NCBI GenBank assembly: GCA_951406725.2
Contig: OX597827.1
Coordinates: forward strand, 40,548,001-40,612,000
Reading direction: 5' to 3'
DNA from: Octopus vulgaris
Lineage: Eukaryota
DNA length: 64,000 bases
Positions 1,737-51,251 of this stretch are shown here, in pieces (the stretch's first letter is position 1; every line of letters begins with the position of its first letter). Below the pieces are notes generated by a model. That model was not told the origin of the DNA and searched no databases. It was given only the letters and a program-made list of their open reading frames with translations. The position numbers were made by a program, and so were the translations under genes.

Positions 1737-1770
<34 letters not shown>

Positions 1771-1772
<2 letters not shown>

Positions 1773-2133
1773 TTCAATTCGTCCTTAGTCGAAAGACACC
1801 TGTTATGTCCTGTTATTATTTTTATTGTTTTTTTATGTTGTATTTATTGTATTTATATTTGTGTAACATTGTTTTTTCGGTCCTTGTTTTTGTATACATT
1901 CGATGCTTTCTTCCAAGGAATCTAATGCTCTTAGCTTAGTTTTTCCTTGGGGCTGGCCAGATTGGAGCAATCTCGAGTATAATCAGCCGAAATTGCGAAG
2001 ATAATCTGGTACTCGACTGAGGAAAGAAAACTTTGAATGACCCGTCCTTGTTTTCTTTGTATCGTCTGGATGTTTTGTTGTCCCTTTTTGTATGACCTAG
2101 TTGTCCGGATGTTTTGCGCTCTTGTCCCATTTG
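1771..2133 (+). mobile_element. Retroelement-like fragment flanked by (GTAT)n, carrying a highly structured RNA module
   Basis: (GTAT)n on both sides; shares GGCTGG...GTATA(A)TCAGCCGAAA with the hammerhead-bearing repeat at about 50710-50890. Confidence 0.5.
1938..2032 (+). ncRNA. Predicted double-pseudoknot RNA with a kink-turn and hammerhead-like core motifs
   Basis: Helices GGCTGG/TCAGCC, CCAGATTG/TAATCTGG, GCAAT/ATTGC, TCGAGTA/TACTCGA and outer TTTCCTTGG/CTGAGGAAA; GA/GAAGA internal loop; CTGAGGA, GAAA and ATC motifs. Paired by eye, not by computed folding. Confidence 0.5.
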
Positions 2134-2331
2134 TATGTATGTATGTATGTCATTATTCAGTTTTATGTATTTTATAGATATAAATGTATGTATGTATATA
2201 TGTATCTTCATATTCATAGTTCAGTTAAAACAGGTTACCCTGAAGGAATACAGTTCAACTTTGACAGGCTGGAGTGACACACCACAAAAATACTTGCAAT
2301 AACAACCCTGCCTTCATTTCTTATAGTTATA

Positions 2332-2946: not shown

Positions 2947-3404
2947 ACTGAATAACAGCAACAAAGATGATCGCCCAAGCTACTAGAAAAAGAAGCTATA
3001 TATCTCGCCAACCACACGCTATTTTCTTATTAAGGGCCAGATCGCGTTAGTTAATGTAAACATATTACATGCCTGCCCCTAAAGAGAAAGCGGTATGCTC
3101 ATTTGCTGTGTGATGCCTGTTATCATAGGTCCGTTAGATCAGAGTTGGCTCGGGGTTAAATAACTATAGCGACAACAGCCTCCAACAGCAATAATAGACC
3201 AAAAACTACCACCACCACTACCACCACCACCACCACCACCACCACCATCACCACCACCACCACCACCACCACCGCCACCAGCAACAACAGTAACAACAAC
3301 AACAACAACAACAGCAACCACTACCACCACCACAACAAGTCACAACAACAGCAACACTAAAATCGAATGATCACTTAGAGTCGATCGATCTATCAGAAAT
3401 AATG

Positions 3405-4525
3405 GTTTCAAATCTGGGTACAAGGAGAGCAAATTAAAGAAGGAGGAGTTTAAATGGATTACATCGAACTCAGTGCTCAGCTGGTACTTTATTTTCTCGG
3501 CCCCCAGCGAAATCGACCTCGGTGTAAATTGAACTCAGAAACGTAAAGAACTAGAAAGAAATACTGCTATGCATTTTGTCCGTCGCACTAACGTTTCTTA
3601 TTTCTTTATTGCCCACAAGGGGCTAAACATAGAAGGGACAAACAACGACAGACAAAGGGATTAAGTCGATTACATCGACCCCAGTGCGTAACTGGTACTT
3701 AATTTATCGACCCCGAAAGGATGAAAGGCAAAGTCAACCTCGGCGGAATTTGAACTTAGAACGTAACGGCAGACGATATACCTATTTCTATTTCTTTACT
3801 ACCCACAAGGGGCTAAACACAGAGAGGACAAACAAGGGCAGACAAACGGATTAAGTCGATTATATCGACCCCAGTTCGTAACAGGTACTTATTAAATCGA
3901 AAGGCAAAGTCGACCTCGGCGGAATTTGAACTCAGAACGTAACGGCAAACGAAATACCGTTAAGTATTTCACCCGGCGTGCTAACGTTTCTGCCAGCTCG
4001 CCACCTTAACCCCTTACAAATAATCGTTTCTATTATAGGCACAAGGCCTGAAATTTGGGAGAGAGGGATAGTTGATTACAACTACCTCAGTACTCAACTG
4101 GTACTTAATTTAGCGACCCCGGAAGGATGAAAGGCAAAATCGACCTCGGCGGAATTTGAACTCAGAACGTTGCGGCAGACGAAATACCGCTAAGTATTTC
4201 ACCCGGCGTGCTAACGATTCTGCTAGTTCACCACCGTAACCTGTTACAAATAATAACCAAATCTCCCTCGAATCACACCTGCGTTTTCAAGAAATGAAGG
4301 TAGCAATGGATAACAATAATATGTTCTTTCCTACTCTAGGCACAAGGCCCGAAATTTTGGGGGAGGGGGCCAGTCGATTAGATCGATCCCAGTACACAAC
4401 TGGTACTTAATTTATCGATTCCGAAAGGATGAAAGGCAAAGTCGACCTCGGCGGAATTTGAACTCAGAACGTAAAGACAGACAAAACACCTGGCGTGCTA
4501 ACGTTTCTGCCAGCTCGCCGCCTTA
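3405..4525 (-). mobile_element. Cluster of tandem/nested tRNA-derived SINEs (family A)
   Basis: Repeated cgaccccgaaaggatgaaaggcaaagtcgacctcggcggaatttgaactcagaacg (reverse complement of a B-box plus a core that resembles the MetaSINE domain). More copies at about 6190-6580, 16455-16665, 31224-31440, 44430-45028 and 47620-48310. Confidence 0.85.
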
Positions 4526-5550: not shown

Positions 5551-47078
<41,528 letters not shown>

Positions 47079-50372: not shown

Positions 50373-50753
50373 GCATACGCGCATATTTACCTACGTACAT
50401 AGGTACATAAGCATGGAGACAGGGAAGCCAGTGCTGATGAAATATTTCATATGTCATTGTACAGTCCTCTGCCACTGAACAGAGAGATACCACAACAGAG
50501 TAAATGCCGTAACATATTGTCTTCAACACCATTATCTTATCAACGTGAAATGTCGTTGACAGCAACTAATAAACTAGACTGTGTTAATAATAATTTTCCT
50601 TAAGGTTACGTTCATATTTTATTAATCAAGTTCAACAACAACAACAACAACAACCGCAACAACAACAACAACCGCAACAACAACAACAACCGCAACGACA
50701 ACAACAACGAAAAATACCTTAGGAATGAGAACCCATGTTCGAAATTTCCCCAA

Positions 50754-50799
50754 GACACCTGATGAAGGCTGGAGGGTATATCAGCCGAAACGTTGTGTT
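50754..50799 (+). ncRNA. Minimal type I hammerhead ribozyme in a short repeat element (about 50710-50890)
   Basis: GACAC-CTGATGA-A-GGCTG(GAGGGTATAT)CAGCC-GAAACGTT-GTGTT; intact core; palindromic AACGTT stem III; stem I GACAC/GTGTT. Confidence 0.75.
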
Positions 50800-51251
50800 A
50801 ACAACAAATAAGATGAGGACAAATATCTGTCAAATGTAAATTATGTAAATAATGTACATAATTCCTCATCTCTTAAATATAGAACTGAATCATTATTTAC
50901 TCTTTGGTTCAGAAACTTTTCAATCTAACAGCCACTCCTCTTTCTTCAAAGTTCTTGCAATCTTGAGAAAAATAAATAGAATAAGGATTGGGTCATATGT
51001 TATTTAAGGAGGACGTTCCCGTATAATCATTAGATTTGGTTACTATAACGACCAAAGTCTTTCTTGAAAGTTTTTAAAACTATATAGGTGTATGAGTGGC
51101 TGTGTGGTAAGTAGCTTGCTTACTGACCACATGGTTCCGGGCTCAGTCCCATTGCGTGGCACCTTGGGCAAGTACCTTCTACTATAGCCTCGGGCCGACC
51201 AAAGCCTTGTGAGTGGATGTGGTAGACAGAAACTTAAAGAAGCCCGTCGTA

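Follow-up and report, generated by a model that had tools for sequence, protein, structure and literature searches.

Does the densely paired segment near the start of this stretch of Octopus vulgaris DNA (64,000 nucleotides, here called the window) encode a hammerhead ribozyme, and if so, of which class? The earlier note had read positions 1938 to 2032 as hammerhead core motifs in a non-canonical order, knotted with a kink-turn (k-turn), and had not recognised them as a described class. The segment lies within a short repeated element, which is delimited as follows.

1738..1771, plus strand: (TATG)n tract, 8.5 copies at 100%, left boundary of the element
1772..2132, plus strand: one copy of a dispersed high-copy repeat of ~360 bp, with depth in 28 of 28 bins of sequencing run X8
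2131..2150, plus strand: (TATG)n tract, right boundary of the element, repeat family D3

Neither a second copy of 1772-2132 nor a tandem array over it is present in the window, no tRNA gene was called within the window, and the 360-bp copy contains no open reading frame of at least 110 codons. The copy may represent the 3' portion of a longer element. Its own 3' part, 2040-2132, is U-rich, and short internal repeats occur at 2064-77/2103-16 and 1880-90/2044-54. We also note a 43-bp minisatellite at 2334-2589, with some 3-6 diverged units, and several SINE-like copies in close tandem at 3400-4200.

Four helices make up the motif. They were found where the earlier note had placed them, with every pair formed (26 of 26 over 1951-2023), and its junction letters were likewise verified: GA at 1965-66, GAAGA at 1997-2001, GAA at 1989-91, AUC ending at 1972 and CUGAGGA at 2017-23. 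We take the hammerhead numbering to be C3-A9 at 2017-23, G10.1 at 1951, C11.1 at 1988, G12-A14 at 1989-91, A15.1-U16.1 at 1992/1971 and C17 at 1972, with helices d, a and c as stems I, II and III, respectively. The helices and the segments that they connect are listed below.

1951-56/1983-88, plus strand: helix a (stem II), 6 of 6 pairs, one G-U
1957-64/2002-09, plus strand: helix b (bridging or interaction helix, 8 bp), 8 of 8 pairs, one G-U
1967-71/1992-96, plus strand: helix c (stem III), 5 of 5 pairs
1973-79/2010-16, plus strand: helix d (stem I), 7 of 7 pairs
1951..1956, plus strand: G10.1 onward, the 5' strand of helix a, separated from A9; G1951-C1988 is the G10.1-C11.1 pair
1965..1966, plus strand: GA, positions 2n and 1n of the k-turn, equivalent of the 2-nt linker of type CSG
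1967..1972, plus strand: 5' strand of stem III (c), whose last base is U16.1, followed by C17; the cut is predicted at 1972/1973
1973..1979, plus strand: 5' strand of helix d (stem I), 3' of the predicted cut, by pairing
1980..1982, plus strand: 3 nt linking stems I and II, like type SGC
1983..1996, plus strand: 3' strand of stem II (a'), G12-A13-A14, A15.1 and 3' strand of stem III (c'), by pairing
1997..2001, plus strand: 3-nt bulge of the k-turn (1997-99), then GA (1b, 2b), by letters
2002..2016, plus strand: 3' strand of b (2002-09), continuous with the 3' strand of stem I (d', 2010-16), by pairing
2017..2023, plus strand: core C3 U4 G5 A6 N7 G8 A9, by letters

The motif contains the full hammerhead core, i.e. 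C3-A9, G12 A13 A14, the A15.1-U16.1 pair, H17 and the G10.1-C11.1 pair, and stems I, II and III adjoin this core with 7, 6 and 5 bp, respectively. Stem II adjoins G12, and its 5' strand is not covalently beside A9. When all GAA and H17 positions around CUGAGGA were tried, a single reading was obtained that combines A15.1-U16.1 with long stems I and III. A conventional type I, II or III reading of CUGAGGA was rejected by an exhaustive test, in which a stem II contiguous to A9 never exceeded 3 bp. The letters and the pairing uphold the proposal of a pseudoknotted hammerhead derivative on the plus strand, with a k-turn and an expected cut after C1972. The strand is fixed by the core letters and not by folding energy, because the z-score preference flips with the span considered. 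Over 1938-2032 the z-score is -3.66 for the plus strand vs -1.73 for the minus strand; over 1900-2035 it is -4.38 for the minus strand vs -2.95 for the plus strand, so that the assignment to the plus strand stands but folding energy cannot be counted among its supports. A weak internal direct repeat (1969-84 vs 1991-2006, 75%) is also present in the motif.

The link between helices b and c is a consensus k-turn, consisting of C-G, a 3-nt bulge, G.A, A.G and then U.G. The suggested GA/GAAGA kink-turn is borne out, since letters 1997-2001 with 1965-66 agree with the rule of a 3-nt bulge and tandem G.A/A.G pairs. The likeness to a standard k-turn (Kt-7 type) extends from the C-G pair and the bulge through G.A and A.G to a 3b.3n of U.G. 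The k-turn has 3b=U and 3n=G; according to the accessible part of PMC4382518, 3n=G permits folding in metal ions, and by the 3b=U/3n=G sequence rule the present k-turn is predicted to be able to do so. The angle of a k-turn is given as 50 degrees in the part of PMC5061560 available, and an abstract on k-turns describes their binding by L7Ae-family proteins. No description of a k-turn within a natural hammerhead was found in the literature searched.

Chance was assessed with nulls that were devised post hoc, after the motif had been seen, and the margin is large. A helix-blind pattern that combines the motif letters with their spacings has a single match in the window, and 0 of 100 shuffles contain it; a loose descriptor with free lengths and at least 4 bp in each helix has no match in 414 simulated 64-kb windows. 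The motif-only control, in which the same or a looser pattern is matched in viral (23 matches), metagenome (10) and prokaryote (7) collections, yields a mean of 10.1 and a maximum of 14 of 26 pairs (n=40). In the search for relatives, the patterns applied to the viral collection gave 23, 23, 0, 59, 78 and 2 loci, with 10 from metagenomes and 7 from prokaryote genomes. All were rejected: the first 23 viral loci are without CUGAnGA within 30 nt downstream; the second set of 23, together with the metagenome and prokaryote loci, forms at most 14 of 26 pairs; none of the 137 loci of the next two sets passed the stem test; and the last 2 match over 19 nt only. For patterns with fixed or bounded lengths, the fold is absent from the viral, metagenome and prokaryote collections.

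The repeat family offers a further view of the structure. The stretch is present in 20 of the 24 sequencing runs listed, 18 of which contain at least half its words, and two organisms are represented. Four runs were aligned on 1772-2132 at 80% likeness: X8 (DNA), X5 (presumed RNA), X19 and X23. Run X8 provided 11,254 aligned contigs, 353 of which extend past the ends; its summed depth, which is not a copy number, is highest over a, b, c and the flanking hairpin e described below. Run X5 gave 100 contigs of the repeat and X19 three, and X23 (raw DNA reads, with the species label of the runs that match best) is uninformative on the family, with no depth over 1889-2132 and low-complexity matches only. 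The aligned RNA runs consist of contigs, and the alignment listed no position at which molecules start or stop. X19 is a metatranscriptome labelled insect metagenome, and its three contigs match at about 90-95%, one of them with A at the cleavage position. These contigs may be carry-over or a real relative, both being alike possible, and no host range is drawn from them.

Variants were taken as unlinked summed-depth alleles, with 40 of 100 rows covered, 13 of which fall inside 1951-2023 (the other 27 were uncounted). Twelve of the 13 fit the fold, a result that random sets equal in 12 of 200,000 cases. Six variant rows form three two-sided pairs, all in stem I (random sets equal in 429/200,000). 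Exclusion of the CpG-prone pair 1975/2014 leaves 10 of 11 that fit (36/200,000) and four two-sided rows (3,254/200,000). The allele frequencies at the two sides are 60 and 42% in X8 and 78 and 85% in X5 for 1975/2014, and 54 and 17% in X8 and 80 and 84% in X5 for 1978/2011; the terminal pair 1979/2010 shows 46 and 51% in X8 and is discordant in X5 (79 vs 11%). No two-sided change was found in a, b or c among these unlinked 40 of 100 rows, and one-sided changes occur in stem II and b, with none in stem III. The pair-keeping alleles on a single side are 1983C in stem II, which turns G-U into G-C, and 2003G in b, where U-G is kept; 2007C (23% in X8, 76% in X5) breaks a pair of b unless its partner 1959 has also changed. 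Four variants lie at free places, namely H17, N7 and two bulge bases. The allele 1972A at the cleavage position keeps the NUH rule, and within CUGAGGA (2017-23) N7 (2021) alone varies in the 40 of 100 rows. In the same rows, the variants in the k-turn are confined to bulge positions 1997 and 1999, and GA 1965-66 is invariant. Outside the motif, the common alleles 2030G and 2034C restore pairs of the flanking helix f, 1903C and 2033C break one, and 1944C breaks a pair of e; the allele 2024U, directly after A9, reaches 75% in X5 and 5% in X8. Loose ends behind 2020 come from subfamilies that retain CUGAAGA and have an altered f strand. This pattern suggests that the variants of the family follow the predicted structure, with the invariance of the core read from 40 of 100 unlinked rows only.

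To which class would such a ribozyme belong? The order of the core motifs, site (1971-72), GAAA (1989-92) and CUGAnGA (2017-23), is the order S, G, C of the type SGC hammerheads (PMC10085705). The earlier note was correct that the order UH, GAAA, CUGA is not a circular permutation of the conventional types, and its statement that no described class is matched does not hold, for the order is that of type SGC. As presented in the accessible text of PMC10085705, type SGC is a non-circular permutation with a linker of ~3 nt between stems I and II and a fourth helix that binds the other sides of these two stems. That report comprises 583 predicted sequences and five that cleave, with all four stems tested by compensatory mutation; the sequences come from metatranscriptomes and metagenomes, genomes of known organisms contributing one weak bacterial candidate only, and a structure was announced as in progress in 2023.

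The present motif shares with type SGC (HRIMA-1 and the SGC variants of PMC10085705) the motif order, the 3 nt that link stem I to stem II (1980-82), a joining helix, in this case helix b, on the other sides of both stems, and an intact core. SGC-3, the fastest variant tested, has the same stem III letters as the motif, and in it stem III is joined to the interaction helix with 0 nt in between. About 30 rows of the alignment of SGC variants conserve extra letters at the distal end of stem I that agree with the common alleles of the octopus family, and many type SGC sequences have a U after A9, as in the allele 2024U. The difference concerns block C. After CUGAnGA, type SGC continues with the stem II strand and the interaction helix's 3' strand; here both are placed at the 5' end and lead on into stem III. 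The uninterrupted block C of type SGC is not reproduced at this locus. Of the 6 pairs with 1983-88, the bases that come after 2023 make 2, and 1 contiguous; the stem II partner of 1983-88 is 1951-56, at the 5' end of the motif. The supplement of PMC10085705 has 0 matches for kink or k-turn, in contrast to the k-turn of the present motif.

Type CSG, known from two sequences, provides the complementary likeness. According to the accessible text of PMC10085705, it runs through stem II, an 8-bp helix, a 2-nt linker, a 5-bp stem III, the site, stem I, a short linker, stem II and GAAA, and the validated CSG-1/2 have a 6-bp stem II, with lengths nearly equal to those of 1951-1996. The CSG chain opens ahead of stem I, where CUGAnGA and stem II are joined, and stops behind stem III; in the octopus motif stem III is extended through the k-turn to the interaction helix, and the chain is broken at A9/G10.1. 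Membership in type CSG was rejected on the ground that CUGAGGA lies 3' of the site and the stem II half of block C alone lies 5'. The motif possesses all three inter-block links of the ring that underlies types SGC, CSG and GCS, and this ring is opened between A9 and G10.1 because the stem II strand sits at the 5' end and not after CUGAnGA. Block C was assumed to be uninterruptible in PMC10085705, the known alignments in its accessible parts having no more than 1-2 nt inserted between CUGAnGA and the stems, and the published search patterns demand that CUGAUGA be directly joined to stem II. A permutation with a split core is out of reach of these patterns, since CUGAUGA must directly precede stem II.

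The comparison also bears on the geometry of the fold. The nearness of the ends of stem III and the interaction helix is, in the accessible text of PMC10085705, the single point of the model that its authors leave unexplained. Since the octopus motif has both of the links that connect stem III with the interaction helix, these face each other and can be read as a standard k-turn, which is a direct candidate for explaining this closeness. The hammerhead core order is already known, and the layout with a split core and a k-turn is absent from the literature searched. Hammerheads with a kink-turn, k-turn or four-way junction were not found in that literature, outside which most subscription papers lie. 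Apart from the 2023 study it contained no paper on type SGC, the octopus papers listed contained nothing on the motif, and the architecture is absent from the accessible parts of PMC3088659, PMC10162972, PMC11014351 and PMC13725137. A non-LTR retrozyme, which is defined by tandem repeats each with a type I hammerhead, was rejected for a motif that is solitary in the window and not of type I.

The sequences flanking the motif contribute two helices and a further strand that were not part of the earlier description.

1782..1792, plus strand: strand antisense to 2013-2023 (end of stem I and CUGAGGA), 11 of 11 pairs, candidate off-switch
1897..1912, plus strand: 5' strand of helix f, closing the entire ribozyme domain by pairing with 2024-39
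1913..1950, plus strand: hairpin e, 8 bp, with an inner hairpin at 1922-1939, immediately 5' of stem II, fold probability 0.94-0.97
2024..2039, plus strand: 3' strand of helix f, immediately after A9, pairing with 1897-1912

Helix e (1913-20/1943-50) forms 8 of 8 pairs and helix f (1897-1912/2024-39) is 81% complementary; both had been overlooked. Nested folding gives b, c and e at probabilities of at least 0.94, with a and d near 0, and when 1895-2045 is folded, b, c and e reach at least 0.97 and f 0.7-1.0. The values for a and d are near 0 because pseudoknots that cross b, c and e cannot show in nested folding. We infer from the pairing that e and f would make a four-way junction at the A9/G10.1 opening. 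The fold of 1772-2132 as a whole pairs 1782-92 with 2013-23 (-16.5 kcal/mol) and so masks the core with a probability of 0.94; binding of the core as good as this was seen in 0 of 2000 shuffles and in 4 of 984 window pieces. This modelled pairing makes the upstream 11-mer a candidate off-switch that may act in longer transcripts. Once 2046-2132 is included without the 11-mer, folding loses helix f to a downstream helix. The off-state proposed before, 1945-50 with 2017-22, can form and is weak (-4.4 kcal/mol); it competes with e (-10.5 kcal/mol), against which it is judged minor and was rejected as the main off-state. Within 1782-1797, the strand against the core overlaps a small GUC-GAAA-GAC hairpin (1788-97), a possible competitor. 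We also note that 2050-58 can pair with 2023-31, displacing helix f, and that 1769-77 pairs with 2033-41, so that the element may begin with a piece of 2008-2041 that was inverted long ago.

Which element carries the motif? A second hammerhead in the window bears on this question.

50754..50799, plus strand: minimal type I hammerhead of conventional form, like those of Penelope-like elements, separate from the knotted motif

It has a stem I of 5 bp, one additional base behind A9, a stem II of 6 bp and a palindromic stem III of 2 bp. The likeness of stem II to this hammerhead, which had been pointed out before, is real: both strands are identical to a/a' (five unconstrained letters, ~6e-4 by composition in one post hoc comparison). 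An alignment of the entire region to the 50754 element is not significant (108 of 1000 shuffles as good), and homology on this scale was rejected. The Rfam search suggested by the earlier note returned no match to the motif, with 3 weak matches on 1760-2150, all far under the gathering scores, and no ribozyme among the best 150 of 213 matches on the whole window. This is a weak negative, because Rfam also misses the hammerhead at 50754-50799. A hairpin at 50716-50754 precedes the conventional hammerhead, with a size and layout similar to e, and the element in which the latter lies spans about 50600-50890 and contains a (CAA)n tract. Ten letters around its stem I strand (50752-50761) recur at 1790-1801, which may be chance.

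Hammerheads in animal repeats have been tied to Penelope-like elements in the accessible parts of PMC4209133, PMC6765202, bioRxiv 10.64898/2026.07.22.740005 and bioRxiv 10.1101/2021.04.23.441226. The minimal type I hammerheads of these elements (Cervera and de la Pena 2014, PMC4209133), as far as that text is accessible, resemble the motif in their occurrence in animal repeats, in a long stem II and in that they tolerate an additional base between A9 and G10.1; they differ in a circular order, in a 2-bp palindromic stem III that needs a dimer, and in the lack of a pseudoknot or k-turn. The base between A9 and G10.1 is described there as a conserved trait of Penelope-like hammerheads. The backbone may be taken as tolerant at A9/G10.1, since Penelope-like hammerheads conserve one base at this point. 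Judged from these letters, a Penelope origin of the repeat is a lead that we hold slightly to the favourable side of even; it is only a lead because the stem II letters are shared but the regions align no better than shuffles. The retroelement carrier proposed by the earlier note is plausible as far as a repeated element goes, and the link to a reverse transcriptase was not found, no reverse transcriptase (+ GIY-YIG) frame being present among the 20 of 77 window ORFs scanned. Penelope-like elements are also marked by pLTRs in tandem or partial tandem; in the window the repeat is single and lies in no tandem array. Mariner-type transposase pieces are found at 12774-13604 and 33944-34699 (Pfam Transposase_1, E 1e-21).

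The same scan leaves room for a real ribozyme in another host, i.e. the 3' end of a LINE, a SINE-like element or an integrated viroid-like circular RNA. SINE-like elements with hammerheads exist according to the accessible part of PMC6765202, and the type SGC ribozymes of PMC10085705 derive, in the portion available, from metatranscriptome contigs. Against such a host stand the stem II letters held in common with the Penelope-type minimal hammerhead of the same window and the tie of animal hammerhead repeats to Penelope-like elements in the parts of PMC4209133 and 10.64898/2026.07.22.740005 consulted. We regard another host as quite conceivable, somewhat short of an even chance; it concerns the host alone and is compatible with monomeric cleavage.

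Taken by itself, the plus-strand RNA is probably a monomeric hammerhead of SGC/CSG topology, predicted to cut after C1972. The mechanism that we infer, which covers the three-dimensional fold, cleavage, action as a monomer, transcription, the switch and the host element, would proceed as follows. The hairpin of b and c with its k-turn would form first. The k-turn would then bend b back alongside stems III and II, where it would connect stems I and II at their far ends, and the flanking strands would pair into the 20-nt loop as the pseudoknots a (stem II) and d (stem I), by which the standard core would be assembled. The chain would enter and leave between A9 and G10.1 through f and e, the four-way junction being placed where other hammerheads tolerate one bulged base. 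After the cut behind C1972, helices a, b, c and f would still hold the two products together. Cleavage would fix an end of the RNA of a retroelement, likeliest a Penelope-like element or a non-autonomous derivative, and the 1782-92 strand may keep the ribozyme off in longer transcripts. The complete scenario, in which a Penelope-type minimal hammerhead was rearranged to an SGC/CSG/GCS ring, wholly closed by a k-turn and opened within the catalytic core (A9/G10.1) at a four-way junction, and this monomeric, antisense-switched ribozyme was amplified to thousands of copies in an animal genome, is advanced tentatively, as something that may well be so without being favoured.

The locus could also be a hammerhead derivative that cleaves barely or not at all and serves as a recognition element for a protein or reverse transcriptase, with a k-turn that could bind an L7Ae-family protein, as such proteins do in the abstract cited above. 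The split at A9/G10.1 is without tested precedent in the accessible text of PMC10085705, Penelope-like hammerheads cleave poorly in vitro and may have other roles (PMC4209133, in part), and the core can be masked by 1782-92. Yet the variants in 40 of 100 rows spare the catalytic positions and touch N7 and H17 within the allowed letters, which is the pattern of selection for catalysis as far as these rows go, and the lengths equal those of cleaving CSG and SGC ribozymes. We consider a role in recognition without appreciable cleavage unlikely.

Dimeric or trans cleavage, in which the a and d'-CUGAGGA strands of each RNA pair into the b-c loop of another, appears rather improbable. Metazoan Penelope-like hammerheads act as dimers (accessible parts of PMC4209133 and PMC6765202), a and d are unformed in nested folding, and the geometry makes it hard for a single molecule to close both linkers, as the authors of type SGC themselves remark in the available part of PMC10085705. 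However, stem III is a stable, non-palindromic helix of 5 bp, so that what usually calls for a dimer is missing. No second copy lies in the window, helix f pairs the 5' strand with the 3' strand of a single molecule, and the k-turn is what a monomer needs for folding back. An origin of the motif by chance, or its imitation by palindromes and small duplications at the DNA level, can be dismissed in spite of the post hoc recognition and the weak 75% internal repeat, since no null approaches the motif and the family variation tracks the structure.

The monomeric hammerhead with a split core, if true, would break the stated rule of an uninterruptible CUGAnGA block and would add a permutation that the six orders of Eckert et al. 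do not include. It would place a non-circularly permuted ribozyme in an animal genome, where none was found in the 2023 study. The k-turn would offer a testable answer to the open question of why stem III and the interaction helix lie close together. The origin of the non-circular permutation is left unexplained by the authors of PMC10085705 in its accessible text; with a large family near a Penelope-type hammerhead that has the same stem II, the origin of the permutation would become traceable.
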